Assembly: GCA_017993955.1 (NCBI GenBank)
Contig: JAGOLR010000003.1
Location: 6,878-70,877 of the forward strand
Length of the DNA: 64,000 nt
From: Candidatus Omnitrophota bacterium
GTDB lineage: Bacteria; Omnitrophota; Gorgyraeia; 2-01-FULL-45-10
Reading direction: 5' to 3'
The position numbers and the translations under genes were made by a program. Of the stretch, positions 36,434-53,773 are shown piece by piece; position 1 is the first letter of the stretch; each line of letters opens with the position of its first letter. The notes below the pieces were generated by a model that saw only the letters and a list, made by a program, of their open reading frames with translations, searched no databases and was not told the DNA's origin.

Positions 36434-36434
36434 A

Positions 36435-37106: not shown

Positions 37107-37110
37107 AGCC

Positions 37111-37959: not shown

Positions 37960-38639
37960 GTGCAGGGAGGATGAGCAATATGCCCGGACCGGATTTTGAT
38001 AAGCAATTCGAATACGAGAACAATTTCTATCTGACAGCGCCTGTTAATCGAATCAGTAAGTTTGCTACGCATCTTGAGTTATTCAGAAAGGTTTCCGGCG
38101 TTGCGGGCGAGATAGTTGAATGCGGTGTTTTTAAGGGGGTTTCGTTATCCCGGCTGATAAAATTCAGGGCGCTTTTCGAGAATGCATTTAGCAAGAAGAT
38201 CATAGGATTTGATACGTTTGGGGAGTTTCCGGAAGCGCGATACGCTGACGATATAGGGAAAAGGGCCCAGTTTGTCAGGGAGGCCGGCAGTCGCAGCATT
38301 GGCTTGGAGGAATTCATCTCCTTGCTGAAAAAACTCGACCTCTATCAGAACATCGAGCTGATTGAAGGCGATATACTTAAGACGGTCCCGGAGTATACGG
38401 CGAAAAACCCGCATCTTAAGATATCGCTTTTACATATTGATGTTGATCTGCATGAGGCGACTGATGTTTGTCTGAAAGAACTGTATCCGCGCGTCTCAAA
38501 AGGCGGGATAGTGATACTCGATGATTACGGCGCTTTTGCCGGAGCGAACAAGGCCATCGATGACTTCTTCGCAGGCAAAAAAATGAAGATAAATAAGCTG
38601 CCGTATTCGAATGCGATTTCTTTCGTTGATGTGATTTAG
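37956..38639 (+). CDS. TylF/MycF-family sugar O-methyltransferase (class I SAM MTase)
   Basis: 'GEIVECGVFKGVSLSRL', 'LLHIDVDLHEAT' and 'GGIVILDDYG' match macrocin-O-MT family motifs. Confidence 0.7.
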   Translation: MSAGRMSNMPGPDFDKQFEYENNFYLTAPVNRISKFATHLELFRKVSGVAGEIVECGVFKGVSLSRLIKFRALFENAFSKKIIGFDTFGEFPEARYADDIGKRAQFVREAGSRSIGLEEFISLLKKLDLYQNIELIEGDILKTVPEYTAKNPHLKISLLHIDVDLHEATDVCLKELYPRVSKGGIVILDDYGAFAGANKAIDDFFAGKKMKINKLPYSNAISFVDVI

Positions 38640-38660
38640 CGCAAGTGGAAAATCCTGTTT

Positions 38661-40259
38661 ATGGCAACTATTCTGATGGTTTACTGTAACAGGCTGGTCT
38701 CCGGGGTTCAGTATTCGGGCATAGCCAGTATGTCAGCCTTTGCAAAGAGAGGCGGTCATAAGTACCTGCTTTTTGACGCAGCGGCATATACGAATGAAAA
38801 AAAGGCAGGATCTTACCGGTCATATAAAGATAACAAGTTCCTTATCGACTTGGAATTCAGGCCGATAACGAATGCGGAAGTTATGCCATTCAAAAAGCCG
38901 ATGGCGGAATTATTGGCCGACCTTGAAAGCGAGCTCTTAAAGAGCAAGGTTGACGTGGTCGGTTTCTCTTCTTTTTCGGACGACTGGCCATTCACCCTTT
39001 TTCTTATACGGAAGGTTCGAGCTATGCTTCCGTCGACCCCCATAATTGTCGGAGGAGTGCACGCAACGGTCGCGCCTGATGAGGTTATTAAGCATGAAGA
39101 AGTCACGATGCTTTGCGTCGGAGAGGGTGAAGAAGCGCTTGTCGAGTTGCTAGACTCGATTGATAAAGGCCAGATCGACACGGCCATACAGAATTTGTGG
39201 ATTAAGACTGGTGATGCTGTCATCAAAAATAGTTTGCGGCCCCTCGTAAGGCTGGATGGTAGTTTTCCGAAAGCGGATTGGACGCTTTACAATGACATGC
39301 ACTTCTATTATCCATTTGAGGGCAAGCTGTTTCGCAGGGGCAGTGTCTTTGCAAGCAGGGGTTGTCCTTATTCATGCAGTTATTGCATAAACGATCTTTT
39401 TATGCGGCTCTATGCAGGGGATAAACCGTGCCGTTTTAAAGGAGTATCATATCTTATAGATGAGATATCGCGTTTAAAGGATACGTATGCTTTGGAGTTT
39501 TTGCGCTTCTGGGACGAAACATTCCTGGCAATGCCCCGTACATATCTGTCCGATTTTGAAAAAGAGTATAAAAGAGAGATTGGGCTTCCTTTTACAATAG
39601 AGACCACGGCCACGACGGTAACTGACGAGCGGTCCAGAATACTTGCAGAGATGGGATGTCAGTCAGTTAGTGTTGGCGTCGAGACGTCAAACGAACATTT
39701 GCGGACAGGTCTTCTCGGCAAGAAAGTTAGCAATGCTGCATACGATGAATGCTTTAGGCTGCTCACCAAGTACGGTTTGCGCAAAGTGGCTAATTTCATG
39801 TTCTTTCTCCCTCATCAGACGCTTGATGACATGTGGAATGATGTGCATGCCTGCAAGAAGTGGAAAATAGACCATCCTTCCGCAAGGATATTCTATCCGT
39901 ATCCTGGCACGACACTGAGGGAGTATTGCATGCGAAACGGAATGATAGACACCGCTGCGCTTGGCTGGATTGAAGATGAAGAAGCGATTAAATCGCTCAA
40001 CAACCTGAGTGAAAATTATATAACGTTCCAGGATACGGTCATGAAATGCGACACGCGCCTAAAGAGAGAAGGCAAAAAGATACTCGATAATTTTATACTT
40101 TTTCAGGAGACCGAAGTGCAGTCTCATGCTCGCCTTGTAGAATTATTAGACAGAGATGACTACGATGCAAAAAGCGTTATACGAACTATGGAATGCGATG
40201 TCTACAGAAAGCGTTTTGGCGAGGAGCCAGTATTAAAAAAGAGCCTGGATGCGATATGA
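38661..40259 (+). CDS. B12-binding domain radical SAM protein
   Basis: 'ASRGCPYSCSYCIND' (CxxxCxxC) and an N-terminal B12-binding-like domain. Length is 532 aa. Confidence 0.75.
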   Translation: MATILMVYCNRLVSGVQYSGIASMSAFAKRGGHKYLLFDAAAYTNEKKAGSYRSYKDNKFLIDLEFRPITNAEVMPFKKPMAELLADLESELLKSKVDVVGFSSFSDDWPFTLFLIRKVRAMLPSTPIIVGGVHATVAPDEVIKHEEVTMLCVGEGEEALVELLDSIDKGQIDTAIQNLWIKTGDAVIKNSLRPLVRLDGSFPKADWTLYNDMHFYYPFEGKLFRRGSVFASRGCPYSCSYCINDLFMRLYAGDKPCRFKGVSYLIDEISRLKDTYALEFLRFWDETFLAMPRTYLSDFEKEYKREIGLPFTIETTATTVTDERSRILAEMGCQSVSVGVETSNEHLRTGLLGKKVSNAAYDECFRLLTKYGLRKVANFMFFLPHQTLDDMWNDVHACKKWKIDHPSARIFYPYPGTTLREYCMRNGMIDTAALGWIEDEEAIKSLNNLSENYITFQDTVMKCDTRLKREGKKILDNFILFQETEVQSHARLVELLDRDDYDAKSVIRTMECDVYRKRFGEEPVLKKSLDAI

Positions 40260-41650
40260 AGATACTCCTGATAGTGTATGATAACGATTCCTTCCTTCAT
40301 TGGTTTCCCCTCGGACTTGGCTATATAGCGGCCGTTCTAAAAAGAGAGGGCCATGACGTGGAGATTTATCAGCAGGATGCGCACCATTTCCCTGAATCTC
40401 ATCTCACTGCACATCTTGAAAAGTCCCACTATGATGTAGTCGGAATCGGGGTTATAGCGGGTTATTATCAATACAGAAAAATCCTGAAGATTTCCGAGGC
40501 CATACGGAGGTCGAAAGATAAGCCGTTTTTTATTATAGGCGGCCATGGCCCAACACCCGAGCCGGAATTTTTCCTGAAGAAGACCGGGGCCGATGCGGTC
40601 ATTCTGGGCGAAGGAGAGGAAACGGTAGTGGAATTATGTGATGCGCTGAGTCGTGGGAGATCATGGAAGGATGTCAAGGGTATCGCGTATATCGATAACG
40701 ATACCGGAAAGCGTGTGATGACCGGATCTAGGCCGCTCATTAAGGATCTAGATACTATACCCTATCAGGCATGGGACCTTTTCGATATCGGCTATTACTC
40801 ATTATTCCGATTTCCGAATATAAGTCATAATCAGCGCGGCCTGCCCATAATTACCGGCCGCGGTTGCCCGTATACCTGCAATTTTTGCTATCGAATGGAG
40901 AAAGGCATGCGTCCCCGGACCGCCCAGAGCATAGTTGCTGAGGTTCGGGAATTGATGAAGAGATATGGCGTGACTTATATATCTTTTTGTGATGACCTTT
41001 TTATGGTGTCTGAGGCCAGGACAAAGGATTTGTGCGATGCATTCCTGACTGCCGGGCTTGGCATTAACTGGTATTGTAACGGCAGACTTAATTTTGCGTC
41101 AAAGGAAATACTACAACTGATGAAAAGGGCCGGTTGCGTTTTTGTGAATTATGGCATCGAGGCAATGGATGACCGGATACTGAAAAATATGAACAAAGCG
41201 CTGACTATTGAGCAGATAGTGAGGGGCGTAGAAAATACGCTCGCTGTCGGCATTAGCCCCGGATTAAATATTATATTCGGTAACATAGGTGAAGACAGGG
41301 AAACTCTTAATAAAGGAGTTGCGTTCCTGCTTAAGTACGATGATGCATCCCAGCTCAGGACGATAAGGCCCGTGACGCCGTATCCCGGATCTCCGCTGTA
41401 TTACGATGCGATCGATAAGGGATTGTTGAAGGATTGCGAAGATTTTTATGAAAGAAAGCATATAAATTCCGATCTGCTGACGGTTAATTTTACTGGAATG
41501 AGCGATATTGATTTTCATCAGTCTCTTCTAGAGGCAAACAAGGCATTGCTGGCAAATCATTTTAAGAAGAAGCTGCAAAGGGCTGTAGAGCAGTCAGAAA
41601 GTCTGTATATCAAAAAGAATGCCGCATTTCGCGGTTTTAGGCAGACATGA
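40256..41650 (+). CDS. B12-binding domain radical SAM protein
   Basis: 'TGRGCPYTCNFCYRME' and N-terminal 'KILLIVYDNDSF...GLGYIAAVL'. ATGA overlap with the upstream gene. Confidence 0.75.
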   Translation: MKILLIVYDNDSFLHWFPLGLGYIAAVLKREGHDVEIYQQDAHHFPESHLTAHLEKSHYDVVGIGVIAGYYQYRKILKISEAIRRSKDKPFFIIGGHGPTPEPEFFLKKTGADAVILGEGEETVVELCDALSRGRSWKDVKGIAYIDNDTGKRVMTGSRPLIKDLDTIPYQAWDLFDIGYYSLFRFPNISHNQRGLPIITGRGCPYTCNFCYRMEKGMRPRTAQSIVAEVRELMKRYGVTYISFCDDLFMVSEARTKDLCDAFLTAGLGINWYCNGRLNFASKEILQLMKRAGCVFVNYGIEAMDDRILKNMNKALTIEQIVRGVENTLAVGISPGLNIIFGNIGEDRETLNKGVAFLLKYDDASQLRTIRPVTPYPGSPLYYDAIDKGLLKDCEDFYERKHINSDLLTVNFTGMSDIDFHQSLLEANKALLANHFKKKLQRAVEQSESLYIKKNAAFRGFRQT

Positions 41651-41661
41651 GGCTTAAATAA

Positions 41662-43578
41662 ATGGGCCGATCAGGCGGTTCGGAAACAACAAATGTCTGG
41701 GTTCAGAAGATCGGGATAGTGCATATAATCATATTTGCTATGAAGGGTATCTTTTGCAGATATGCCGTATATTATGATGTCCGCGGCATTGACGTAATGA
41801 CAGGTTGGTTTATTGGGTTGCTTAGAAAGTCAGGATTGTGTGGTAATTTTTATCCTGAAAAGTTTCTCCTGGCGGAAAAGGAAGGGGAGGGCTTTGCATC
41901 GGTTCAAAGCATGTTTAAAGACCTGGATAAATCAATCGACAATTTTGTAGCGAAGCACTATGCTGCGGAATCGGACAGGTTAAAAAGGACCATAAAGTCG
42001 TATGTTGCGTATGCGTTGCGAAATAATAGCGCTTTCATGATCGCAGCCGGACGCAAGGCCGATGATACGAAAGGGGGTCGAAACCTGTTTTGTATAAGAA
42101 GGCACCCTCTCAATCACATACTGATTGACTACTATGTGAAAGAGCTAGGTTTGTTGGTAGGGGAGTGCGGCTTGCGGGACGTGATAATGTTTTATCTTAC
42201 CTCGTGTCTGTCTATCTGTTCGTCGGTCCTTTTCGCATGTATACCTGAAAGGACGATCCGCGATGCGGTGAATGTGAAACCGTCGATCTGGGTGGAATAT
42301 GCACCGCTTGATATATTGGATTTCTCTTTTTGGAGCGACTTCGTTGACAGGAGCGATTTTGATATAGTGGCGTATTTTGACCGGCCTGACTATGGTGATA
42401 TGGATAAAATTAAGTCGAAAGTCATATCGCGCGGGTTCAAGTGGGTGCAGTTTAACCATCCCCGATCGGCAAGACTTGGCAAGGTTTGTCTGCGCAGGCT
42501 TTTCAGAGGCTTGCCTTTCAGAGGTTATCGCGGTCTGCCCCTCTGGGCCCACATATTCCGCGTTGAATACCAGCTGACTTTTCTTTTGTATGAGGCTATT
42601 TTTAAGCGCTTTAAGGTTAAAATACTCATTCAGCATCAGGAGGCTGCCTGGAAGCAGAATGTTCAAGCTGCCGCCGTTGAATCGGCCGGGGGTATTATGA
42701 TCGGGTACAACTGGTCTATCTATTATTTCCGGTATCTACCGACGCATACATTTCCGCAGCATGTCTATTTTGTGTGGGGGAATGAGGTAGGCCGTTGTAT
42801 TGAGAAGATTGATAAACCGAAGTGCCTTCTGCCATCCGGGCTATGGATAACGTATGATGCCAAGGATGCACCGGCGGCACTGGAGAGCCTTGATAAAGGG
42901 ATTGCATTCAAGATCGCTATTTTCGACAATTCGACTGGTCAAACAACGGCATATTCGCCGGAAATGCTGCTAAGGTTCTATGTGATGCTTTTACGGTTAC
43001 TTGCGGATCATCGCGATTGGGGTGGCATCATAAAGAGTAAAAGCTACGATACGGCTGTTTTGGGATCATTTGCGGGCGGTGAGGAGGTGGTGGCGCAGAT
43101 GGAAGCGCTTATCGCTTCCAGGCGACTTGTGGTCCTCGATCGTAATTATAGTCCATTAGCCGCGTCATCAAACGCTGATATTTCAGTTTGTTTTGGTTTA
43201 AATACCGCAGGCATTATTTCTGGAATACACGGTCTCAGGTCTATTCATTGGGACTGCGGGGGCATAGTGACGCGTGTGGAGAATGCGGAATATTACAAGG
43301 ATATCGCGTATGTTGCGCTTGAAGATCTTAGCGCGGCGATCCTGAAGGCGGCTGCAGGAGACCGAAGTGTAGGGGATTTTTCAAAATGGCGTCAGCAGTT
43401 TAACTATTTTGACGATTTTCGCGCGGCCGAACGCGTCGGAGATTTTATACAAACGTATATGACCGAGCTCCTTCAGACAGGAGATGTGCACCAATCGTTG
43501 GCTCGATCCGTGCAAAGGTATAATCTGAAGAATAATTATACGAGGTCCAGTGCGGAGGTGGTTTTTGCGAAAGCATGA
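41662..43578 (+). CDS. hypothetical 638-aa protein of unknown function; the C-terminal region is paralogous to the C-terminal domain of the 47458-49629 gene product (candidate CMP-sugar transferase-like domain)
   Basis: There are no recognisable catalytic motifs of the common families. It shares 'A[DH][HR]..' and 'A(A/H)SS(N/T).(D/S)IS' segments with the 47458 gene product. A large antisense ORF within it is considered a shadow ORF. Confidence 0.4.
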   Translation: MGRSGGSETTNVWVQKIGIVHIIIFAMKGIFCRYAVYYDVRGIDVMTGWFIGLLRKSGLCGNFYPEKFLLAEKEGEGFASVQSMFKDLDKSIDNFVAKHYAAESDRLKRTIKSYVAYALRNNSAFMIAAGRKADDTKGGRNLFCIRRHPLNHILIDYYVKELGLLVGECGLRDVIMFYLTSCLSICSSVLFACIPERTIRDAVNVKPSIWVEYAPLDILDFSFWSDFVDRSDFDIVAYFDRPDYGDMDKIKSKVISRGFKWVQFNHPRSARLGKVCLRRLFRGLPFRGYRGLPLWAHIFRVEYQLTFLLYEAIFKRFKVKILIQHQEAAWKQNVQAAAVESAGGIMIGYNWSIYYFRYLPTHTFPQHVYFVWGNEVGRCIEKIDKPKCLLPSGLWITYDAKDAPAALESLDKGIAFKIAIFDNSTGQTTAYSPEMLLRFYVMLLRLLADHRDWGGIIKSKSYDTAVLGSFAGGEEVVAQMEALIASRRLVVLDRNYSPLAASSNADISVCFGLNTAGIISGIHGLRSIHWDCGGIVTRVENAEYYKDIAYVALEDLSAAILKAAAGDRSVGDFSKWRQQFNYFDDFRAAERVGDFIQTYMTELLQTGDVHQSLARSVQRYNLKNNYTRSSAEVVFAKA

Positions 43579-44053
43579 TCGCAAGATCGTTCTGCGGAAT
43601 ATATCTTTGATCGTATACGACTTTGACGGTGTCCTTACGGATAATAAGGTCATTCTCCGCGAAGACGGTATGGAGAGCGTGGTCCTTAACAGGTCAGACG
43701 GTATGGCTATGAGAATGATCATGGATAGAGGGATTGAGCAGATCATAATAACGTCGGAAGTGAACAACATAGCGCTCGCGCGATCAAAAAAGTTGGGGAT
43801 AGCGGCAATGAGCAGGGTGAATGATAAGAAGAGGGCCCTTGTGGAGTATTGCGGTAAGCGCGACGTACCATTGAGCCGGGTTTTGTATATCGGAAATGAT
43901 ATAAATGATCTTGAAGTCATGAAAGCGGTCGGGGTTGCTGCGTGTCCTTCGGATGCGTGCGATGAGATCAGGACGATCGCCGATCTGATCCTGCGTTCGC
44001 GCGGAGGGTGCGGCGTTGTGCGGGAACTATTGAACTCATTACAGGCTTTATAG
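43550..44053 (+). CDS. HAD-IIIA family sugar-phosphate phosphatase (KdsC / nonulosonate-9-phosphate phosphatase-like)
   Basis: 'LIVYDFDGVLTDN' (DxDGV motif) and 'YIGNDINDLEVMKAVGVAACPSDA'. Confidence 0.8.
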   Translation: MRRWFLRKHDRKIVLRNISLIVYDFDGVLTDNKVILREDGMESVVLNRSDGMAMRMIMDRGIEQIIITSEVNNIALARSKKLGIAAMSRVNDKKRALVEYCGKRDVPLSRVLYIGNDINDLEVMKAVGVAACPSDACDEIRTIADLILRSRGGCGVVRELLNSLQAL

Positions 44054-44073
44054 TGAAAGATCGATAAAAGGAG

Positions 44074-44976
44074 ATGCGGTATATGGGAAAGAGGACTGTG
44101 AAGATCGGCACTAAAGTTATCGGCGATGCAATGCCCTGTTATGTGATCGCTGAGATAGGCATTAACCATAACGGATCCTTGGACATAGCAAAAAGGCTCA
44201 TCGATGCCGCCTACGATTCGGGGTGCGATGCGGTCAAGTTTCAAAAACGGACTATCGACATAGTTTATAGTCAGGAGGAGTTGTCCAAACCCCGAGAGAG
44301 CCCGTTCGGCAAAACGAATGGTGACTTGAAGAGGGGGTTGGAATTCGGCGCGAAAGAATATGCTGAGATTGACTCGTATTGTAAGGCCAAAGGCATTGTC
44401 TGGTTTGCCTCGTGCTGGGACGAGAATTCAGTGGACTTCATCAGTCGATTCGAAGTACCGTGTTATAAGGTAGCCTCGGCATCGCTTACCGATGATGCTT
44501 TATTGAAGCATCATCGCGCAAAGGGCAGGCCAATCATCCTTTCGACGGGGATGAGTGACATGAGGATGATCGAGCATGCCCATGATGTCCTGGGAGAGGA
44601 TGATTTGATCATTATGCACTGCACGAGCACCTATCCTTCAAAACCGGAAGAGCTCAATCTTGGCGGCATACGGACGTTGCTGCAAAGATTTAATCTGCCG
44701 ATAGGGTATTCCGGTCATGAGGTTGGCCTATACACGACATTCGCTGCCGTTGTACTTGGCGCATCCGTCGTTGAACGTCACATCACCCTGGACAGGTCAA
44801 TGTGGGGCAGTGACCAGGCCGCTTCCGTTGAACCTCAGGGATTCAAGCGCCTGGTTTCGGATATTCGAACCTGGGAGCAGGCAAAGGGGGATGGCGATAT
44901 TCGGATATATGAAAGCGAAATACCCATTATAAAGAAGTTAAGGCGGGTGGGCGGAGATGTCGGTGTCAAAGCATAG
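44074..44976 (+). CDS. N-acetylneuraminate-synthase-family (NeuB-like) nonulosonic/ulosonic acid synthase, second paralog
   Basis: 'CYVIAEIGINHNGSLDIAKRLIDAAYDSGCDAVKFQKR' and 'GYSGHE'. Confidence 0.75.
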   Translation: MRYMGKRTVKIGTKVIGDAMPCYVIAEIGINHNGSLDIAKRLIDAAYDSGCDAVKFQKRTIDIVYSQEELSKPRESPFGKTNGDLKRGLEFGAKEYAEIDSYCKAKGIVWFASCWDENSVDFISRFEVPCYKVASASLTDDALLKHHRAKGRPIILSTGMSDMRMIEHAHDVLGEDDLIIMHCTSTYPSKPEELNLGGIRTLLQRFNLPIGYSGHEVGLYTTFAAVVLGASVVERHITLDRSMWGSDQAASVEPQGFKRLVSDIRTWEQAKGDGDIRIYESEIPIIKKLRRVGGDVGVKA

Positions 44977-45682
44977 AATAGTCGCGGTGATACCCGCCAG
45001 AGGCGGTTCGAAAGGCATTCCCGGGAAAAATATCATAGATTTTTGCGGAAAGCCTTTAATAGCGTGGTCGATCGAGCAGGCCTTGGGTAGTGCTTTGATT
45101 GAAAGAGTGTATGTCTCTTCAGATGATGCCGAGATATGCAAAATTTCAGAATATTACGGAGCGACAGCCATCAAGCGTCCCGCGAGCCTGGCGACTGCCA
45201 GCGCTTCAACGGAAGGTGCGCTCAGCCATGCGGTGCGATCCGTAGAAGATTCCAGCGGTAAAAGCATAGATGCGGTCGTATTTCTTCAAGCTACATCTCC
45301 CCTGAGGGTTACTATAGATATCAATTCCGCCATCGATCTGTTTGTCTCTAAAAAAGCGGACTCTCTTTTTTCCGGTTCCTTGCTCGATGATTTTTGCGTC
45401 TGGGAGCGTAAAGGCCGCAGGCTGAATAGCCTGACCTATGATTATAAGAACAGAGGTCGTAGGCAGGAGAGGGAGCCGCTTTTTCTTGAGAATGGCTCGA
45501 TCTATATATTTAAACCGTCAGTGATCAGGCGGTATAACAACAGGCTTGGTGGCAGGATTGTTTTTTATCCGATGCCTTTTTGGAAATCTTATGAAATAGA
45601 CAAGTCCGAAGATGTAGAGATTTGTGAGTATTACATGCGCAAGAATATACTCAGGAAGGGAGGGTCATGGTGCAAAGACTAG
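44957..45682 (+). CDS. acylneuraminate cytidylyltransferase (CMP-nonulosonate synthetase, NeuA/LegF/PseF-like)
   Basis: 'IVAVIPARGGSKGIPGKNIIDFCGKPLIAWSIEQA' and 'LQATSPLR'. Confidence 0.8.
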   Translation: MSVSKHRIVAVIPARGGSKGIPGKNIIDFCGKPLIAWSIEQALGSALIERVYVSSDDAEICKISEYYGATAIKRPASLATASASTEGALSHAVRSVEDSSGKSIDAVVFLQATSPLRVTIDINSAIDLFVSKKADSLFSGSLLDDFCVWERKGRRLNSLTYDYKNRGRRQEREPLFLENGSIYIFKPSVIRRYNNRLGGRIVFYPMPFWKSYEIDKSEDVEICEYYMRKNILRKGGSWCKD

Positions 45683-46644
45683 TCTATATGAACGGGAAGT
45701 TCGTCCCGGAATCGGAGGCAAAAATTTCAATATTCGATTCGGCATTAATGTTTGGGGACATGGTATTTGAGATGACAAGGTCTTTCAATAAAAAACAGTT
45801 CAAACTTGTTGAGCATCTCGAGCGCTTATATTATGGTATAAAAATATTCAGAATACCTATGAAGATCGATATTGAAGAAATGGAGCATCTTTGCGAAGAG
45901 GTCGTCAGTAAAAATGAACAGGCTTTTGGTAAACACGACGAGCATAGACTTATGATAAACGTGAGCAGAGGCCCCCTAGCTATATACAGCCATGTTTTCG
46001 CAGACAAGTTAGAGCCAACGCTGGTAATAGCAGACTTTCCATTAAAATGGACAGTTACCGGGATGGGAAAACTTTTTGATAAAGGTATAAATGCCGTTAT
46101 AACATCTCAGCGCGCCATACCAGCCTATCTACTGGATCCTAAGATAAAGAATCGAAGCAGGATACATTATCAGATGGCGAATATAGAGGCTTCTTATCAC
46201 AAGGGTGATAATAACTGGGCGCTCTTACTCGACCCAGATGGCTTTATTGCTGAAGGTACAGGAGATAATTTTTTTATAGTTAAGGACGGCATTGTGATAA
46301 CCCCCGAAGGTCGCAATATACTTAGGGGTATAAGCAGGGCTTATGTTTTTGAACTCTGCGAACAATTGAAACTAAAATATATAGAGAAGAATATAGAGCC
46401 TTACGATGTCTATACTGCTGATGAAGCTTTTATGACCGGCACGCCCTTTTGTGCGTTGCCTGTAACCAGTCTGAACGGGATATTGATCGGAAGCGGCGGC
46501 AGGATGGGTAAGATAACAAAACGGATTTTAGACAGGTGGGGAGAAAATGTCGGTGTCGATATAGTCGCCCAGATAAAAAAGTTTAATGAAGAAACCGAGA
46601 ACCTGAATAAGGTTGCCGGTCCCACGCCCTACAAATTCGATTAA
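45667..46644 (+). CDS. PLP fold-type IV aminotransferase (branched-chain/D-amino-acid aminotransferase family). The start is possibly the ATG at 45688
   Basis: 'MNGKFVPESEAKISIFDSALMFGDMVFE' is the typical BCAT/DAAT N-terminus. Confidence 0.7.
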   Translation: MVQRLVYMNGKFVPESEAKISIFDSALMFGDMVFEMTRSFNKKQFKLVEHLERLYYGIKIFRIPMKIDIEEMEHLCEEVVSKNEQAFGKHDEHRLMINVSRGPLAIYSHVFADKLEPTLVIADFPLKWTVTGMGKLFDKGINAVITSQRAIPAYLLDPKIKNRSRIHYQMANIEASYHKGDNNWALLLDPDGFIAEGTGDNFFIVKDGIVITPEGRNILRGISRAYVFELCEQLKLKYIEKNIEPYDVYTADEAFMTGTPFCALPVTSLNGILIGSGGRMGKITKRILDRWGENVGVDIVAQIKKFNEETENLNKVAGPTPYKFD

Positions 46645-46660
46645 AAACAGGAAACAAAAA

Positions 46661-47461
46661 ATGGCCAAATGCTTTAATGGTTTGACGACCGTTAATGTGG
46701 AACTTACGAGTATCTGCAATAAGGACTGTTGGATGTGCGGAAGGCGTAAGATAGATCGGGAATATCCGGCAATTAAACTTGGTTATGGAAACATGGATAT
46801 AAGACTCGTGCGGTCCATAGCTCATCAATTGCCTGATGACATAGTAGTGCAGTTGCACAATAACGGTGAACCATTGATGTATCCGGAATTTGGCACAGCA
46901 GCGAAACTTTTTTCTAGGCAGTTAAGGTGCGCCGATACTAATGGCAAGCTCCTCGTTGAGAAGGCCGATGAGATAATTGGTAACATGGATACGCTTACCG
47001 TATCTACTTTCGAGAATGATGAGGAAGCCGATGAACAGTATAGACTCGTGAAAAAGTTTCTTAAGCTTAAACGTGACAGGAAGCCCAACGTGATAATAAG
47101 GTGCTTAGGAGACGTGAAGCTTGAAAGATACAGGAAGCTGGGTTGTATAATAGCAACGCGCATACTCCACTCTCCGCTCGGTAGTTTTAACTACAGAAAG
47201 AAAGCCACCGTACCGGAGATAGGGATATGCCTGGATCTTTTGAATCATATGGTAATAAGGCGGGATGGGAAAGTGTCGACATGCGTGAGATTTGATCCCC
47301 TCGGCTTAGGAGTCATAGGGGATTGTACCATGGGAAAATTATCGGATATATGGGCCGGGCTAAAACGTAAAAAGTTGATCAATTATCATCTGAAGGGCAG
47401 GCGGGATAAAGCACCGTTGTGCAGTTATTGTGAATTCTGGGGCGTTCCAACAGGGTATTGA
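46661..47461 (+). CDS. radical SAM protein (small, about 266 aa)
   Basis: 'ELTSICNKDCWMCGRR' (CxxxCxxC) and 'HNNGEPLM'. Confidence 0.7.
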   Translation: MAKCFNGLTTVNVELTSICNKDCWMCGRRKIDREYPAIKLGYGNMDIRLVRSIAHQLPDDIVVQLHNNGEPLMYPEFGTAAKLFSRQLRCADTNGKLLVEKADEIIGNMDTLTVSTFENDEEADEQYRLVKKFLKLKRDRKPNVIIRCLGDVKLERYRKLGCIIATRILHSPLGSFNYRKKATVPEIGICLDLLNHMVIRRDGKVSTCVRFDPLGLGVIGDCTMGKLSDIWAGLKRKKLINYHLKGRRDKAPLCSYCEFWGVPTGY

Positions 47462-49629
47462 TGATTACAATAAGAAAAAATATTAACAATATAGACGAAT
47501 TTCATAGCCCTGCAGGCAAGGTTGCGATGCATGGGGATGGTCAATCCAAATCTGTGAAGACCTTCAATAAGTTGATTGCTGAAGGGAAGGTGCGTCTGGA
47601 GGAAGTACCGTGTCTATGCGGTGGGGAGACATTTGATCTTATAGCGTCTATTGACAGGCATAACATTTCGCAAAAAACGGTCGTTTGTACGCGTTGCGGC
47701 TTGGTCCAATCCAATCCCAGAATGATGAAGGATGATTGCAGGGATTTTTATTGCTCGGATTTATACCGCAGATGTTATGAAGGAGATGACTATATAGCTA
47801 CTGCTGAAAGGCGGTATGAGGCAAATTATGGTGTTCATATTTATGAGGTAGTAAAAAAGGTTAGAAATATACAAAAAGGTATGTCTGTATTTGAAGTCGG
47901 CGCTGGAGGCGGATGGAACCTTATTCACTTTATGAAAGCAGGCGCTACGGTCGAGGGCTTAGAATATAGTCCGTCGCTTGTTGAATTTGGTAAGCGGCAT
48001 GGAGTGAAGATGACTCAATGCCCGGTTTCTCCGAAGGAAAGAGCTCATGATTTGATAATAGCTAGCCATGTGTTGGAACACGCGGCTGATCCGTTATCAT
48101 TTTTATTATCATTGACAAAACAACTTAAAGATGACGGCCTGATTTATGTGGAAGTGCCTAATATATTGGATTTTAGTATAAAACAATTGCAGAGCGCGCA
48201 TATTTATTATTTTACGCCAGCTACTTTAAGAAGGCTGTGCGCAGCAGCAAGACTGGGTATTGTTTTTAGGGGATCAACTCAGGGTGGCCATCTGTTTGTT
48301 ATATTAAAAAAGGCATCTAAGTATAAAGCCCATGGTTTGGTGAAAAATGATTATTGGACGATTCGGTGCAAGATGCTTGAGGTCAAGTTAAAATACATGG
48401 TGCGAAATTTGTTGAAAAATGTAAGAACTAAAAATTCCAAAATCTTGGATTCTCATACAAAAATTAAAAAGGTTATTTATATAGTAGAATCTCCATTTTG
48501 CCAACGGGATCGCGAAAGGTTTGGCATAGAACTAGTAAGACAGGCCGGATTCGAGGTAGAGATATGGGACTTTACGCCTTTCCTTTATCGTGAAGTGCAT
48601 GATAAGGTGAAAGTTAAGGATCCTACGACCATATCCGATGTAAAGACTGTTTTGACCCATAGCGAGGCTTTGGGAATGATATCCAATCTTGAAAAAAGTG
48701 TATTTGTGATGAGCATGTTATTTTATGGGCCTAAAACATTTCAGATATTTAAGGCTATAACTAAAGCAAAATTAAAATATGCGATATTTGCGGCGAATGC
48801 GATACCGAATATAAATGTAAGAAAAACAAAGGAGGATATTTTCCGCAAACTGCGAAAGATGAAGCCCAAAAATTTGTTGGATAGGATTTGCATGGAGCTG
48901 CCTTTTTATTTAATGGGCATCAAGCCTGCCACTTTTCTTTTGGCAGGCGGTGCTAATTCAACAATAGCCTTTACGCGTTTCCCGGTAAATGCTAATACAA
49001 AAACTATCTGGATGCATTCGCTAGATTACGATATTTATTTACAAGAAAGGCGGACAAATTGCTTAATAGATAATAAAATGGGGGTATTTCTGGATGAAGA
49101 TGTGTGTTTTCATCCGGAATACGTGCGCATGGGGGAACCACCATTTTCTACTGCCGGCAAATATTTTTCTATACTAACCCGATTTTTCGATGACATCAAA
49201 GACCGCTATGGAGTCGAAATAACTATAGCGGCTCACCCGCGTTCAAAATATGAAGATTTTGGTGATTTTTTTTCAGGAAGGCAAGTGACGCGCTGGAGGA
49301 CGGCAGAACTTGTTAAGAAGTCAGCGTTTGTGATAGCACATTCAAGTACTTCTATAAGTTTTGCAGTTTTGTTCAGAAAGCCCATCATCTTTATAACTAC
49401 CGATGACCTTGAGAACAGTCCGCAGGGTGGATTGATCAAGACAATGGCCATGCAATTTAACAAAAAACCTATAAATATAAATAAAGTTCGCTATGTAGAT
49501 TTAGAAAAAGAAATGTTTGTGGATGATTTTTTATATACGAGATATAAAGAGCATTATATAAAAAGGAGCATATCTAAAGATGTTCCTTTTTGGGAAATAT
49601 TTGCTCATAATCTCAAAGAGGTTTCCTAG
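47458..49629 (+). CDS. two-domain protein: N-terminal Zn-ribbon + class I SAM methyltransferase; C-terminal about 420-aa domain with His-Pro / Ser-Ser motifs (putative CMP-sugar-dependent glycosyltransferase, inference)
   Basis: N-terminal 'CLCGG...CTRCG' and 'VFEVGAGGGWNL', 'LIIASHVLEHAADP'. C-terminal 'ITIAAHPRSKYEDF' followed about 35 aa later by 'FVIAHSSTSISFA'. Confidence 0.55.
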   Translation: MMITIRKNINNIDEFHSPAGKVAMHGDGQSKSVKTFNKLIAEGKVRLEEVPCLCGGETFDLIASIDRHNISQKTVVCTRCGLVQSNPRMMKDDCRDFYCSDLYRRCYEGDDYIATAERRYEANYGVHIYEVVKKVRNIQKGMSVFEVGAGGGWNLIHFMKAGATVEGLEYSPSLVEFGKRHGVKMTQCPVSPKERAHDLIIASHVLEHAADPLSFLLSLTKQLKDDGLIYVEVPNILDFSIKQLQSAHIYYFTPATLRRLCAAARLGIVFRGSTQGGHLFVILKKASKYKAHGLVKNDYWTIRCKMLEVKLKYMVRNLLKNVRTKNSKILDSHTKIKKVIYIVESPFCQRDRERFGIELVRQAGFEVEIWDFTPFLYREVHDKVKVKDPTTISDVKTVLTHSEALGMISNLEKSVFVMSMLFYGPKTFQIFKAITKAKLKYAIFAANAIPNINVRKTKEDIFRKLRKMKPKNLLDRICMELPFYLMGIKPATFLLAGGANSTIAFTRFPVNANTKTIWMHSLDYDIYLQERRTNCLIDNKMGVFLDEDVCFHPEYVRMGEPPFSTAGKYFSILTRFFDDIKDRYGVEITIAAHPRSKYEDFGDFFSGRQVTRWRTAELVKKSAFVIAHSSTSISFAVLFRKPIIFITTDDLENSPQGGLIKTMAMQFNKKPININKVRYVDLEKEMFVDDFLYTRYKEHYIKRSISKDVPFWEIFAHNLKEVS

Positions 49630-49631
49630 AT

Positions 49632-51434
49632 ATGAAAAAAAATAAAATATCGTTAGTTTTAGGATATCTGGGTAAGTACAGGAGTCTTTCAGTATCTATA
49701 TTCCTGTTTGTTGCTTTTGGGTCTTTTTTGGAGGTTTTTAGCGTAGGGCTTTTATTGCCTATTCTGCAGGGCATGATGGGGAGCCAGAATATATTTAACG
49801 GAATTCCAGTTCTTAGGTGTTTAAATAGTTTTTTTAACGGATGGGACAGGAAAGATCTATTAACATTTTTGCTTCTGGCTTTCTTTATTATATTTACCTT
49901 AAAAAACATGGTATTTTATATGGGCAATGTCATAATATCAAAACAGCGTTTTCTTTTGACTCGGGACCTTCAGAAAGAATTTTTTGATAAGCTTATGCAC
50001 GCGGGGGTGTCCTTTTATGACTCCATCAAATCAGGTCATGTTGTAAATAGTATATATAATGAAACGGTACGAATCGGGAATTTTATAAACTGCACTTTAA
50101 GAGTATTTGCGATGTTCGTTAGGATGTTCGTGAATGCCGTTATTTTATTTATTATATCTTGGCAATTCACTATATTGGCGCTTTTAGCTTTTTTCGCTAT
50201 ACGTTTTCCGCTCCATATTATAATGAATAGGATAAGGGAGACAGGGATAATGGTTAACAAAAAAATAGCGGATTTGACATTTACTATGCTTGAAGCCATA
50301 AATGGCATACGCATAATAAAGATATTCTCTGGCGAAGATAAAGAACGCGCAAAATTCGCAGAAGCCGTGCAAACCACCTATAACCTTCATTACGCGAATA
50401 TAAAAAACGCTGAATCAATATTGCCGCTTACGCAAATTGCTTTTTTCGGTATATTTATAATATTTTTTCTGGTTCTTTTGCGGACAATTACTATGGATCT
50501 GGCGAAGATCATTCCTTATGTAGCAGCCTATCTCTATGTATCAAAGAATGTTCTTACCGATTTTGGCGCCTTGCAGGACCGCAGGGCGGAAGCGTTAAGT
50601 TATTTGGGGGCTCTGGATTCTTATAATGAGATGACGCAGAAGATAGATGCTGCTGTTATGCCGGATGGCGCTAGGGAGTTTGTCAGGATAAATAAAGAGA
50701 TCCGTTTTGATAATGTGTCATTCGGTTATAATGCGGATAAGAAAGTCCTTGATGGTCTGTCTTTTTCTATACCAAAGAACAAGACTACGGCTTTGGTCGG
50801 TTCTTCGGGTAGCGGTAAAACCACGCTTGCCTATCTCTTGTTGAGATTCTATGATGCCGTTAATGGCAGGGTGCTAGTGGATGACTGTGATATTCGGGAG
50901 CTTTCCATGAAATCGTGGAGGTCTAAGATAGGTTTTGTCTCTCAGGATGTATTTATTTTTAACGCGTCTGCTAAGGAAAATATAACTTATGGAAAGCCTG
51001 ATGCTACCGATGCTCAAGTCCGGTCTGCGGCCATGACAGCAGAAATTGATACTTACATATCTGGATTGCCCAATGGATACGATACCATTCTTGGAGAAAG
51101 AGGTATCAAGCTGTCTGGAGGACAACGCCAGAGGATATCCATAGCCAGGGCATTAATACAGAACCCGGAAATCCTTATACTTGATGAAGCTACCAGCCAT
51201 CTCGATACAAAAACTGAGCGGCAGATACAGAGAGCTATAGAAAAATTATCAAAAGACCGCACTGTAATTGTTATAGCCCATAGACTTTCCACTATATTGG
51301 AAGCAGATAATATACTTGTTTTAGGTTCTGGGAAGATATTGGAAAGCGGAAAGCATGCCGACCTCATAAGATCAGGTGGACAGTATAAAAATCTTTACGA
51401 GACACAATTTGAGACAGCAGCACGGAACAGTTAA
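49632..51434 (+). CDS. ABC transporter, fused permease/ATPase (type I exporter, MsbA/PglK-like)
   Basis: N-terminal 6-TM region, Walker A 'GSSGSGKTT', signature 'LSGGQRQRISIARAL' and Walker B 'ILILDEATSHLD'. Confidence 0.9.
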   Translation: MKKNKISLVLGYLGKYRSLSVSIFLFVAFGSFLEVFSVGLLLPILQGMMGSQNIFNGIPVLRCLNSFFNGWDRKDLLTFLLLAFFIIFTLKNMVFYMGNVIISKQRFLLTRDLQKEFFDKLMHAGVSFYDSIKSGHVVNSIYNETVRIGNFINCTLRVFAMFVRMFVNAVILFIISWQFTILALLAFFAIRFPLHIIMNRIRETGIMVNKKIADLTFTMLEAINGIRIIKIFSGEDKERAKFAEAVQTTYNLHYANIKNAESILPLTQIAFFGIFIIFFLVLLRTITMDLAKIIPYVAAYLYVSKNVLTDFGALQDRRAEALSYLGALDSYNEMTQKIDAAVMPDGAREFVRINKEIRFDNVSFGYNADKKVLDGLSFSIPKNKTTALVGSSGSGKTTLAYLLLRFYDAVNGRVLVDDCDIRELSMKSWRSKIGFVSQDVFIFNASAKENITYGKPDATDAQVRSAAMTAEIDTYISGLPNGYDTILGERGIKLSGGQRQRISIARALIQNPEILILDEATSHLDTKTERQIQRAIEKLSKDRTVIVIAHRLSTILEADNILVLGSGKILESGKHADLIRSGGQYKNLYETQFETAARNS

Positions 51435-51470: not shown

Positions 51471-53009
51471 TTGAAGATTACATTGATTTCTCCATATTCA
51501 GATGTGCAATCATTCGGATTGCGTTCCATGTCTTCATGCATTAAAAAAAATGGACATGAAACTCAAATATTGTTTTTGGTGAATCATTTTTCGCGCCCAT
51601 ATAGTAATGAAGTACTTGAAGAAGCGGTCAAGGCATCAAGCGGTTCGGATCTTATTGGTATATCGCTGATGACTAATTTTTTTGATAACGCTGTCCAGAT
51701 AACCCGCAAGTTTAAAAAGGATCTTAATGTGCCGGTAATTTGGGGAGGCGTTCACCCTACATTAAGACCTAAAGAATGTCTTGATTATGCGGACATCGTC
51801 TGTATCGGTGAAGGCGAAACTACCATTGTTGAAGTTTTGTCTGCATTCGAAGAAAAGAGACCGCTTCGCGGGATTAAGGGCATATGGTTCAAGGATAATG
51901 AAGATATTATCAGGAACGAAATGAGGCCGCTTATAAACGAACTTGATGCCATCCCATTCCCCGATTACGACTACGAGGGTCATTGTATATTGAGCGATGG
52001 GCATATAAGTCCAATGAACTCAAAAGTTCTGAACAAATATACACATGGTGCCTATGTTACTATGTCCACAAGAGGTTGCCCTTTTATATGTACGTATTGT
52101 TGTAATAATTTCTTTCATAAATTATATCAGGGCGAGAAGATAATTAGAAAAAGGACTATCGATAATATAATCAAAGAGCTGGTAACGGCAAAAAATATGT
52201 TCCCATTTATCACAAACATGAGGTTTGAGGATGATTGTTTTTTTGTTTACACTGATGAGGAGATAGAAAAATTTAGCCACAATTATAAAAAAGAAGTAGG
52301 CCTACCTTTATTAATTCCCGGGATATCGCCTTCGACGTTCAGTAGAAATAAGTTATCTATGCTTGCGGATGCCGGACTTCGCTGGATAAGAATGGGTATA
52401 CAAACAGGCAGTGAGCGGACTAAACAAATGTACAAGCGTGTCTATTCTAATGAAAAGGTCGCCGATGTTATTAAAACTATCAATGAATTCAAGGACAGGA
52501 TAATGTTGCCTAGTTACGATGTTATTCTGGATAATCCATGGGAAACGGACGAAGACCTTACTGACACTCTGCTCTTCTTGTCGGCCCTTCCCGTTCCATA
52601 TAAGCTAAACCTCTTTTCGCTTGTATTTTACCCTGAAACAGAATTGTATGAGAAGGCGAAGAGGGACGGCATTATTCGAGATGATCTTAATGATGTGTAC
52701 CGGAAATATGTGGCGGGCTGTAAAAAAACCTATGTAAACAATTTGTTCTTTCTCTTGAACGATTATGCTTCGGTAGGGAAACGTTTGCCTCCTGGCGCAA
52801 TTAAGTTGCTTACGGACCAGAAACTTAGGTGTTTGAAGCTGAGTTGGATTATATATGTTTTCTTTAAGATTCGCATCCTTCTTTCCTTCCGGAGGTTATG
52901 GAGAGTCAGCTATTATCTAAGTGAAGCTATGAAAGACATGAAGAAAGGTGAATATGCAAGAATTAAAAGGTTCTTTGGTATAGTGCGCCTGAAAAAGGAG
53001 GGGCAATGA
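51471..53009 (+). CDS. B12-binding domain radical SAM protein (TTG start; the exact start is uncertain)
   Basis: 'STRGCPFICTYCCNNF' and N-terminal 'KITLISPYSDVQSFGLRSM'. Confidence 0.7.
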   Translation: MKITLISPYSDVQSFGLRSMSSCIKKNGHETQILFLVNHFSRPYSNEVLEEAVKASSGSDLIGISLMTNFFDNAVQITRKFKKDLNVPVIWGGVHPTLRPKECLDYADIVCIGEGETTIVEVLSAFEEKRPLRGIKGIWFKDNEDIIRNEMRPLINELDAIPFPDYDYEGHCILSDGHISPMNSKVLNKYTHGAYVTMSTRGCPFICTYCCNNFFHKLYQGEKIIRKRTIDNIIKELVTAKNMFPFITNMRFEDDCFFVYTDEEIEKFSHNYKKEVGLPLLIPGISPSTFSRNKLSMLADAGLRWIRMGIQTGSERTKQMYKRVYSNEKVADVIKTINEFKDRIMLPSYDVILDNPWETDEDLTDTLLFLSALPVPYKLNLFSLVFYPETELYEKAKRDGIIRDDLNDVYRKYVAGCKKTYVNNLFFLLNDYASVGKRLPPGAIKLLTDQKLRCLKLSWIIYVFFKIRILLSFRRLWRVSYYLSEAMKDMKKGEYARIKRFFGIVRLKKEGQ

Positions 53010-53773
53010 CGTTAAAGGCAAGATTGCGGTCCGGTAAGCTTACCATAGGTTCATGGATAACGATAGGAAATTTGTCTGTGGCCGAGATCATGGCTCGCGC
53101 GGGATTCGACTGGCTGGCTATCGACATGGAGCATTCGGCTATAACGCTTGATAAAGCTCAAGAGCTCATCCAGGTCATCGGGCTATGCGGCACTCCGGCG
53201 CTTGTCAGAGTCGGAGAAAATGACCCGGTTGTCATAAAACGGGTCATGGATGCCGGAGCGCAAGGGGTTATTGTCCCAATGATAAATTCTGCCCGGGACG
53301 CTCTGGCGGCGGTGCGCGCGGTCAAGTACCCGCCTATGGGGACGCGTGGCGTAGGCCTTGCGCGGGCGCAGGGATACGGACTGGGTTTTTCGGCCTATGC
53401 CGGATGGGTGAACAGAGGAAGTATCGTGATAGCGCAGATCGAGCATATTACGGCTGTCGATAATCTGGACGAGATCCTGGCTGTTGACGGCATAGACGCG
53501 TTCATCGTTGGGCCGTATGACCTGTCCGCATCGATGGGCATACCGGGAAAATTCGAAGATTTGCGGGTCAAGAACGCCCTTTCCAGGATCATGCGGACGG
53601 CAAAGGTCCATAAAGCGGTCGCTGGATTTCATGTCATACCGCCTAATGCGAAGGAAGTGTTGAAGAAAGTGCGGGAAGGTTACAGATTTGTTGGGTTCAG
53701 TCTTGATACACTCTTTCTGGGAGCGAAGTGCAGAGATGAATTCTCATTATTAAAGGACGGGTTAAAAAGATGA
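53006..53773 (+). CDS. HpcH/HpaI-family class II (pyruvate-dependent) aldolase
   Basis: 'GSWITIGNLSVAEIMARAGFDWLAIDMEHS' and 'VIVPMINSARDA' match the 2-keto-3-deoxy-acid aldolase family. Confidence 0.8.
   Translation: MTLKARLRSGKLTIGSWITIGNLSVAEIMARAGFDWLAIDMEHSAITLDKAQELIQVIGLCGTPALVRVGENDPVVIKRVMDAGAQGVIVPMINSARDALAAVRAVKYPPMGTRGVGLARAQGYGLGFSAYAGWVNRGSIVIAQIEHITAVDNLDEILAVDGIDAFIVGPYDLSASMGIPGKFEDLRVKNALSRIMRTAKVHKAVAGFHVIPPNAKEVLKKVREGYRFVGFSLDTLFLGAKCRDEFSLLKDGLKR

Follow-up and report, generated by a model that had tools for sequence, protein, structure and literature searches.

The window (the whole stretch of DNA analysed, 64 kb in length) belongs to a metagenome-assembled genome (MAG) of Candidatus Omnitrophota and is a glycan-biosynthesis locus, with a single coding strand throughout and intergenic gaps of at most ~240 nucleotides (nt), i.e., gene-dense. 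Two of its open reading frames (ORFs), hereafter ORF A and ORF B, are considered here with respect to nonulosonic acids (NulOs: sialic, legionaminic, pseudaminic and related acids), which cap surface glycans in many bacteria and archaea. A sequence-only reading of the same DNA had presented the two ORFs as carriers of paralogous domains and as candidate transferases of sugars activated by cytidine monophosphate (CMP), of the sialyl or Kdo (3-deoxy-D-manno-oct-2-ulosonic acid) type. Both ORFs and every string quoted in that reading are found where it placed them, and it was right that neither product matches GT2 or GT4 signatures (Pfam, NCBIfam). The main features, with lengths in amino acids (aa), are as follows.

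41662-43578, + strand: ORF A, 638 aa, a predicted protein of the glycosyltransferase B (GT-B) fold with an extra N-terminal alpha/beta region
47458-49629, + strand: ORF B, a methyltransferase fused to a GT-B domain, 723 aa from the TTG at 47458 or 722 aa from the ATG at 47461
47611-47700, + strand: four-Cys Zn-ribbon-like motif (CxC...CxxC: C52-x-C54 ... C77-x2-C80) at the N-terminus of the methyltransferase
47869-48249, + strand: class I S-adenosylmethionine (SAM) methyltransferase core of ORF B, residues 138-264 (Pfam Methyltransf_23, E 3.4e-16)
48466-49626, + strand: GT-B domain of ORF B, residues 337-723 (~385 aa), a member of a large unannotated family

The first half of ORF B had been described as a Zn-ribbon methyltransferase, and it is one: its core is also matched by Methyltransf_11, _31 and _12, while the four cysteines are all kept in the methyltransferase orthologues of four related loci (L005, L007, L021 and L016). 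In five loci (L005-L007, L016 and L021), the orthologous methyltransferase is a separate gene located immediately upstream, either abutting or overlapping, and the fusion itself is unusual, being seen in 0/55 related loci and in none of the other 149 best family representatives. It is nevertheless probably genuine, because gene calls for the fused 722-aa product exist on three contigs, which represent at least two assemblies (among them NCBI JAHZTK010000866.1 and the Logan assembly of SRR11088414). An assembly or frameshift artefact is thus unlikely, though this argument would be weaker if the assemblies shared reads.

As for the C-terminal ~385 residues of ORF B, they match no Pfam or NCBIfam model. 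Their relatives are stand-alone proteins of ~390 aa, all annotated as “hypothetical” and none with a Pfam domain, of which an exhaustive profile search recovered 4,783 representatives (50%-identity clusters) at E<=1e-3 and 2,699 at E<=1e-30. Cultured organisms with such a stand-alone orthologue include M. burtonii (WP_011499640.1/Q12VN0), Raphidiopsis brookii D9 and Schaedlerella arabinosiphila DSM 106076. When 42 of these relatives were compared to Pfam at E<=10, four sub-threshold matches only were obtained, with Glyco_transf_52 weakly matching two sequences (E 0.0087) and Epimerase_2 weakly matching two (best E 8.4e-4, below cutoff).

The AlphaFold2 model of the domain (predicted local distance difference test, pLDDT, 91; predicted template modelling score, pTM, 0.89; 42-sequence alignment) has the two Rossmann halves of the GT-B fold. 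Its closest solved structures are TarL/TagF, UDP-N-acetylglucosamine (UDP-GlcNAc) 2-epimerases and a polysialyltransferase, with 2-epimerases and GT1 enzymes in the top ranks of Foldseek. ORF A is also predicted to be a GT-B protein (pLDDT 87.3) with the same nearest structural neighbours, and ~200 additional N-terminal residues form further beta-alpha units. For the two ORFs alike, TarL and TagF rank first or close to first among the structural matches. The GT-B fold proposed earlier is thus predicted for the two proteins, but the nearest solved folds are TagF/TarL and Epimerase_2 rather than GT52 or GT80. Profile searches of the Protein Data Bank sequences with the ORF A and ORF B family alignments returned no match at E<=10.

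Residue conservation in the ORF B domain was counted over 297 family members, and the following segments stand out (domain numbering unless stated).

49015-49041, + strand: 'HSLDYDIYL', with H180, D183, Y184 and D185, closing the N-terminal Rossmann half
49081-49122, + strand: 'GVFLDEDVCFHPEY', with D206 and H212, strand one and the adjoining loop of the C-terminal Rossmann half
49225-49245, + strand: 'IAAHPRS', the HP motif H253-P254 (H593-P594 of ORF B), residues 590-596 of ORF B
49330-49365, + strand: 'VIAHSSTSISFA', with H288, S290 and T291, residues 625-636 of ORF B, loop after the fourth strand

The two motifs quoted for ORF B are conserved well above what chance would give. The HP motif is nearly invariant (H253 and P254 both in 295/297; R255 in 249/297; S256 in 260/297), and 35 residues separate its His from that of VIAHSSTSISFA, where H288 is kept in 255/297 members, S290 in 283/297 (Thr in 12 more) and T291 in 224/297. 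Of the 'HP then SS' arrangement claimed for ORF B, the HP and the spacing of ~35 residues therefore stand, whereas the conserved pair is S290-T291 and the first Ser is found in only 79/297 sequences, so that the unit is better written 'x-S-T' than 'S-S'. This loop would be the one binding the CMP phosphate. The most conserved residue of the family is D206 (296/297), followed in the same segment by H212 (271/296) and by an Asp at position 214 (263/297). At the end of the N-terminal half, H180 (283/297), D183 (276/297), Y184 (288/297) and D185 (263/297, plus 27 Glu) are candidates for a catalytic base or for acceptor-side residues. Other conserved positions are Y229 (294/297), Y353 (294/295) and K301 (288/297). 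Altogether, the positions conserved at >=90% lie nearly all within residues 180-372, while the N-terminal Rossmann half is variable, which is the pattern expected of enzymes with a fixed donor and varying acceptors.

ORF A, identical (100%) to NCBI MBP7055358.1 (KBB52_00700), has no Pfam match. Three segments of its C-terminal half are relevant here, with conservation counted over 33 relatives.

43000-43026, + strand: 'LADHRDWGG', residues 447-455, a string whose His is not a conserved motif
43033-43041, + strand: K458-S459-K460 in 'WGGIIKSK', in the register of the H-P-R of ORF B according to the strand order of the AlphaFold2 models
43201-43212, + strand: N514-T515-A516-G517 in 'CFGLNTAG', in the loop that follows strand four of the C-terminal Rossmann half

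The segments of ORF A that had been matched to the HP and SS of ORF B turn out to be chance strings. Thus, H450 is replaced by Asn in 28/33 relatives (His in 2/33), and in PLAASSNADISVCFG (residues 498-512) S502 is Ala in 18/33 and S503 in 15/33; moreover, the distance from the His to the Ser pair is 52-53 residues, not the ~35 implied by a similar spacing. Nor is an HP followed by small residues a hallmark of sialyl or Kdo transferases, since the UDP-GlcNAc 2-epimerase encoded in the window itself has 'PLHPRT ... TDSGG' in the same register. What is invariant in ORF A is K458 and K460 (33/33), as well as P498, and the loop at N514 (31/33), S/T515 (33/33) and A516 (32/33) may be a phosphate-binding loop, the counterpart of 'HSSTS' in ORF B, if the modelled register is correct. 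ORF A also has H325 and H367, and no His at the second TagF-type position.

ORF A resembles, albeit weakly, the PFTS_polysacc family (TIGR04417 / PF27878) of polysaccharide loci, over residues 294-549 (E 2.3e-5 with the hidden Markov model, HMM). Weak matches are also found in 12/33 relatives (best E 5.2e-9), and several homologues have a weak precomputed PF27878 assignment. Because the score of ORF A against TIGR04417, the “PFTS motif polysaccharide biosynthesis protein” model, is 23.5 bits for a curated cutoff of 100, we regard it as part of a related clade and not as a member by the NCBI criterion. It has G-L-N-(S/T)-A-G at the loop presumed equivalent to the 'PFTS'-type loop. PFTS_polysacc is itself uncharacterised, and no paper was found in literature searches on this family, on nonulosonic acids of Omnitrophica or on legionaminic acid of M. 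burtonii.

The two ORFs had been called paralogous, with their pairwise alignment set beforehand as one of the tests of the proposal. No significant similarity emerged from it, which is the refuting outcome named there: the best BLASTP E value is 4.5, and hhalign gives a probability of 0.85% for the full-length profiles and <1% for the separated N- and C-terminal halves. With neither sequence nor profile similarity between them, paralogy is unsupported at the sequence level.

Turning to the genomic context, the ORF B family was represented by 49 loci in a scan of one genome per species. Their hosts are Omnitrophota, Methanoperedens, Methanoregula, Methanomicrobiales, Thermoplasmatales, Woesearchaeota, phyla of the candidate phyla radiation (CPR), Syntrophales, Nitrospirae, cyanobacteria, Magnetospirillum, Zetaproteobacteria, Spirochaetia, Bacteroidota, Lachnospiraceae and Veillonellaceae. 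Neighbours were identified by searching six-frame ORFs with the annotated proteins of the window, the unassigned ORFs being clustered and the clusters labelled with Pfam, and were counted within 10 kb in the 34 loci of >=15 kb. NeuB and CMP-synthetase genes are each present in 30/34 loci and at least one of them in 34/34, followed by DegT (23/34), a PtmE-like NTP_transferase+CBS protein (22/34), Epimerase_2 (19/34), GT4 (10/34), GT2 (8/34) and PseG-like genes (4/34), while a canonical Epimerase_2 or PseG-like gene accompanies the ORF B homologue in 20/34. In at least 9/49 loci, the next gene downstream encodes a Wzx-type flippase, and GT-C genes are not enriched in the vicinity. The loci of M. 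burtonii and Methanoperedens combine the ORF B homologue and a flippase with all the genes of a legionaminic-type pathway (dehydratase, DegT, acetyltransferase, Epimerase_2, NeuB and CTP_transf_3), and they contain no known NulO transferase. The partners in the Omnitrophota relatives are instead NeuB modules of the HAD-phosphatase type and an ABC exporter, and one of them (L005/L006) repeats the neighbourhood of the window (ORF A homologue, HAD, CTP_transf_3 and NeuB). Since the homologues occur with differing precursor routes, the family tracks CMP-NulO production whatever the route, and it is surplus to the biosynthetic steps, i.e., an extra gene to which no pathway step corresponds.

For ORF A, three locus look-ups and a metagenome scan provided 18 loci of >=15 kb, in which NeuB (17/18) and CMP-synthetase genes (17/18; either in 18/18) are the most frequent neighbours, compared to GT2 in 6/18 and GT4 in 2/18. 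An ORF B-family gene is present in only 2/41 ORF A loci, and a canonical Epimerase_2 or PseG-like gene occurs alongside the ORF A homologue in three of them (L056-L058). The earlier proposal of candidate CMP-sugar transferases is thus backed by context for both families and by the invariant HP for ORF B, whereas its motif case for ORF A is lost; in other words, the functional guess survives because of fold and genomic context, and not because of the motif argument.

The window fits these observations. Its Pfam scan, which covered all + strand ORFs of >=150 aa, identified four CTP_transf_3 cytidylyltransferases (33813, 36435, 44957 and 53770), i.e., the four CMP-sugar synthetases announced, along with two NeuB-type synthases (37057 and 44074), a KdsC-like HAD phosphatase (43550), an HpcH aldolase (53006), a single Epimerase_2 (13596) and an ABC exporter (49632). 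Several genes are of the GT4 or GT2 type, and more than ten encode methyltransferases. None of the scanned ORFs matches a sialyl-, Kdo-, capsule- or TagF-type transferase family, in agreement with the reported lack of a recognisable CMP-sugar transferase, and none is a synthase of CDP-glycerol or CDP-ribitol (CDP: cytidine diphosphate). The surroundings of the two ORFs, as labelled by Pfam, are:

33813-41650, + strand: upstream of ORF A, a CTP_transf_3-methyltransferase fusion, a radical SAM gene, CTP_transf_3, NeuB, a TylF-type methyltransferase and two B12-binding radical SAM genes
43550-45682, + strand: between ORF A and ORF B, HAD phosphatase (43550-44053), NeuB-type synthase (44074-44976) and CTP_transf_3 cytidylyltransferase (44957-45682)
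45667-47461, + strand: class IV aminotransferase (45667-46644) and SPASM radical SAM enzyme (46613-47461), the two genes that immediately precede ORF B
49632-51434, + strand: ABC exporter whose membrane and ATPase domains (ABC_membrane and ABC_tran) are fused to each other, located 3 nt downstream of ORF B

The exporter recurs next to the ORF B homologue in L005/L006, a Wzx-type flippase being found instead in other loci. Two minus-strand ORFs, at 42145-42666 (173 aa) and 43381-44244 (287 aa), lie opposite ORF A, the HAD gene and NeuB; as the + strand genes have homologues and Pfam matches, they are almost certainly spurious shadows.

Taken together, we think it fairly probable that ORF A and ORF B represent two GT-B families, unannotated and unrelated to each other, whose members transfer nonulosonic or ulosonic acids from the CMP-activated forms. 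This is well supported for the ORF B family and less so for ORF A. For the former, a CMP-nonulosonate glycosyltransferase is the best explanation of the fold, the invariant HP, the conserved donor half facing a variable acceptor half and the linkage to NulO genes, as well as of the coexistence with nucleoside diphosphate (NDP)-sugar hydrolases, the adjacency of flippases and the lack of a known transferase in the loci. For ORF A, the same role is plausible, judging from its context and predicted fold. The donor would be a CMP-nonulosonic or CMP-ulosonic acid made by the products of the neighbouring NeuB and CTP_transf_3 genes, and the acceptor a lipid-linked glycan on the cytoplasmic face of the membrane, to be exported afterwards by the adjacent ABC exporter (or by a Wzx flippase in other organisms). 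In ORF B, the C-terminal Rossmann half would bind CMP, His593 of the HP motif and the S-T loop (residues 627-631) would contact the phosphate and help CMP leave, and an acidic or His residue of the interface (D546, which is D206 of the domain, D523/D525, H520 or H552) might activate the acceptor hydroxyl or serve as the nucleophile. The substrate of the fused Zn-ribbon SAM methyltransferase is probably the same sugar or glycan. ORF A would be a second candidate transferase of this type of locus, with a donor assignment that is less secure because the invariant Lys458/Lys460 pair stands where the HP motif would be. What the data show directly are the predicted folds, the conserved motifs, the size of the family and the gene neighbourhoods; for both proteins, donor, acceptor, residue roles and stereochemistry are what we infer from them.

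Several known systems lend themselves to comparison. The Pse/Leg (pseudaminic/legionaminic acid) transferases of Tannerella forsythia, Tanf_01245 and TFUB4_00887, are TagB-like GT-B enzymes with an HP motif (PMC5420450), and their genes adjoin NulO genes with only a methyltransferase between them (PMC5420450). By analogy, this pair is the closest functional precedent for ORF B, which likewise combines a GT-B fold, an HP motif, nearby CMP-NulO genes and a methyltransferase (fused instead of intervening), while ORF A differs from it in having no HP motif.

The sialyltransferases of GT38, GT52 and GT80 share with ORF B the GT-B fold, an invariant HP, a Ser-rich phosphate loop some 35-45 residues further on and, for ORF B by implication of its context, a CMP-nonulosonate donor. 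In PmST1, the corresponding positions are presumably H311 and S355/S356. The His of the motif binds the CMP phosphate in GT38/GT80 (PMC2169525), and the conserved HP lies in the C-terminal half of these sialyltransferases, a conserved D/E-D/E-G motif being placed in the N-terminal half (PMC2169525). Unlike them, the ORF B family occurs for the most part in environmental bacteria and archaea, beside pathways of the legionaminic or pseudaminic type and not for N-acetylneuraminic acid (Neu5Ac), and neither ORF A nor ORF B has a significant sequence or profile match to these enzymes.

In beta-Kdo transferases, the HP histidine donates a proton to CMP as it leaves (PMC10148158). ORF B resembles KpsC, KpsS and WbbB (GT107/GT99) by its HP motif and its proposed CMP-ulosonate donor, and its D206, an invariant Asp after a beta-strand, is reminiscent of the nucleophile region of KpsC (a resemblance only). 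However, it differs by the absence of any Pfam Capsule_synth match and of global structural resemblance to KpsC or WbbB.

A number of points weigh against a role in NulO transfer. The residue roles given above rely on the register of secondary structures and not on a superposition of coordinates, and literature searches on new sialyl and NulO transferase families revealed nothing on the ORF A or ORF B families, nor biochemistry for any of their members. Furthermore, co-localisation with NeuB is compatible with any step of NulO metabolism, not transfer alone, and the NeuB/CMP-synthetase counts stand without a baseline from an unrelated glycosyltransferase family. As a sequence string, the D/E-D/E-G motif is conserved in neither family, the nearest acidic motifs of ORF B being D183-Y-D185 and D206-E207, neither of which is followed by Gly. 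UDP-GlcNAc 2-epimerases score equal to TarL, so that the fold cannot tell transferases from GT-B epimerases or hydrolases, and in a low-confidence hhalign alignment, used for motif register only, the AAHPRS of ORF B falls on the 'LHPRT' of the window's own epimerase and its HSSTS on 'TDSGG'. Finally, the HP motif is missing from ORF A, whose Lys pair is similar to that of NDP-sugar GT-B enzymes.

This last point leads to the alternative that has the best standing, and which concerns ORF A only: it could be an ordinary NDP-sugar glycosyltransferase of the GT-B fold, or a non-catalytic scaffold, residing in NulO loci without transferring NulOs, a possibility to which we attach a modest but real weight. 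Lys/Arg pairs bind the diphosphate in many NDP-sugar GT-B enzymes, and K458/K460 stand, by strand order, at the position of the missing HP. On the other hand, the 18 well-flanked ORF A loci all contain NeuB or CMP-synthetase genes, compared to the few with GT2 or GT4, and most of them have neither an ORF B-family gene nor a known NulO transferase. Besides, to our knowledge, the CMP-Kdo-dependent enzymes of GT30 also do without an HP motif.

A less probable alternative is that the ORF B domain, ORF A or both act upstream of NeuB as a nucleotide-sugar hydrolase or 2-epimerase, i.e., an analogue of NeuC/LegG or PseG. Like Epimerase_2, NeuC and LegG, ORF B occurs in NulO loci, and in its C-terminal half strand two is followed by an HP(R) and strand four by a loop of small residues; the alignment of these motifs and the weak Epimerase_2 matches described above go in the same direction, as do the 14/34 ORF B loci without a canonical Epimerase_2 or PseG within 10 kb. 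Yet a canonical gene of this kind coexists with ORF B in the other 20/34, and the legionaminic pathway is already complete in some of them. The family is moreover found beside NeuB modules of the HAD-phosphatase type, which need no hydrolase, in addition to pathways of the UDP/GDP-sugar type (uridine and guanosine diphosphate), and because it occurs with both routes its role appears independent of precursor synthesis. With profiles that we built ourselves for Epimerase_2 and PseG-like proteins, hhalign probabilities do not exceed 3.9% (16-sequence Epimerase_2 profile: 3.9% for ORF B and 0.1% for ORF A), no Epimerase_2 HMM matches either window protein, and the conserved residues of the N-terminal half differ. 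The ribose-binding acidic residue after the DSGG loop is also unmatched in ORF B, as far as a low-confidence alignment can tell, and a variable N-terminal half joined to a conserved C-terminal half suits a transferase.

It is improbable that ORF A and ORF B are TagF/TagB-like polyol-phosphate transferases, adding phosphodiester-linked units from a CDP-alcohol donor to a glycan. CMP is the leaving group in these enzymes too, as in our proposal for both ORFs, and ORF B has two conserved His, H212 and H253. In TarL, the His equivalent to that of the HP motif protonates the leaving group, and TagF-like enzymes have two invariant catalytic His, one serving as base and the other protonating the leaving group (PMC10901376). 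Nonetheless, those of ORF B (conserved in 271/296 and 295/297 members) are 41 residues apart compared to 133-140 in TarL/TagF, a comparison made without superposition, and no Glyphos_transf (PF04464) or TagB-type match exists for the window proteins or the 42 ORF B relatives at E<=10. In the gene-dense window there is also no space left for a synthase of CDP-glycerol or CDP-ribitol, its four cytidylyltransferases all belong to CTP_transf_3 (CMP-ulosonate type), and the Pfam-annotated loci of the relatives contain no IspD or CTP_transf_like genes.

Least probable of all, the ORF B family would move the NulO from CMP onto polyprenyl phosphate, giving a lipid-phospho-NulO carrier to be flipped by Wzx or an ABC exporter and used outside by GT-C enzymes (for example, the PMT_2-like proteins at 20092-24672 may be such users), which would agree with the flippase as frequent next gene and with the scarcity of other glycosyltransferases in the loci, but not with the variable N-terminal (acceptor) half or the lack of GT-C enrichment near ORF B homologues; we know of no lipid-linked donor of the sialic acid type. 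The PMT_2-like proteins in question are three tandem polytopic membrane proteins of the GT-C type (505, 466 and 557 aa), with weak Pfam matches.

Beyond the two candidate CMP-nonulosonate transferases, the window and its relatives show other recurrent features. Methyltransferase fusions are found twice more in the window: at 33813-35081, where a single product joins a CTP_transf_3 (residues 5-127) and a class I SAM methyltransferase (residues ~242-359), the second such fusion of the locus, and at 58424-59890, which encodes a 488-aa methyltransferase-GT2 protein. Radical SAM genes are unusually dense (15618-16997, 35081-36433, 38661-41650, 46613-47461, 51471-53009 and 60719-61789), including four enzymes with B12-binding domains, two with SPASM domains and one other; together with the more than ten SAM methyltransferases, this density suggests ulosonic acids that are heavily C- or O-methylated or otherwise tailored. 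B12-binding radical SAM genes are also present in 15/18 ORF A loci, and lie directly upstream of the ORF A homologue in 9/30.

At 53006-54537, an HpcH/HpaI aldolase is paired with a full-length CTP_transf_3. The same pair occurs in M. burtonii (L001, 12979-20170), followed by 2-Hacid_dh, SDR, cyclase, HAD and methyltransferase genes and by a 548-aa ORF without Pfam match, and HpcH is present in 5/34 ORF B-family loci. These genes may form a module that makes an ulosonic acid by an aldolase route and includes an unrecognised transferase of its own. Another ORF without Pfam match (625-648 aa; L005/L006, 17518-19464) lies directly upstream of CTP_transf_3 and Hydrolase_3 in the Omnitrophota locus that carries both ORF A and ORF B homologues, and a recently modelled ~590-aa family, PF27859 'LIC12162', recurs in 5/18 NulO loci of the ORF A type (e.g., L056, 20656-21950; L057, 19487-21274). 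According to hmmsearch, the 648-aa ORF of L005, the 548-aa ORF of M. burtonii and the LIC12162 family are all unrelated to ORF A and ORF B, and the 625-648-aa ORF is unrelated to LIC12162 as well. Lastly, a conserved trio composed of His_biosynth (HisF-like), GATase (HisH-like) and a ~400-aa ORF without Pfam match is found in nine ORF B loci (L014, 5426-8219; L019, 6318-9120; and 7 others) and in eight ORF A loci (e.g., L056, 5795-8576); it is probably an amidotransferase set making acetamidino-substituted NulOs.

ORF A and ORF B belong to unannotated sequence families inside an already known kind of enzyme. The family of ORF B, with its ~4,800 clusters at 50% identity, has no Pfam model and no name, and no paper on it was found. 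Its hosts include Omnitrophota, methanogens, Methanoperedens, CPR bacteria, cyanobacteria and gut Firmicutes and Bacteroidota. If ORF B is indeed the missing transferase of these loci, it would define a new glycosyltransferase family and provide the first candidate NulO transferases for archaea, with cultured organisms to test them in, as well as additional enzymes for the chemoenzymatic synthesis of legionaminic and pseudaminic glycosides, while ORF A would represent a second, HP-less class.

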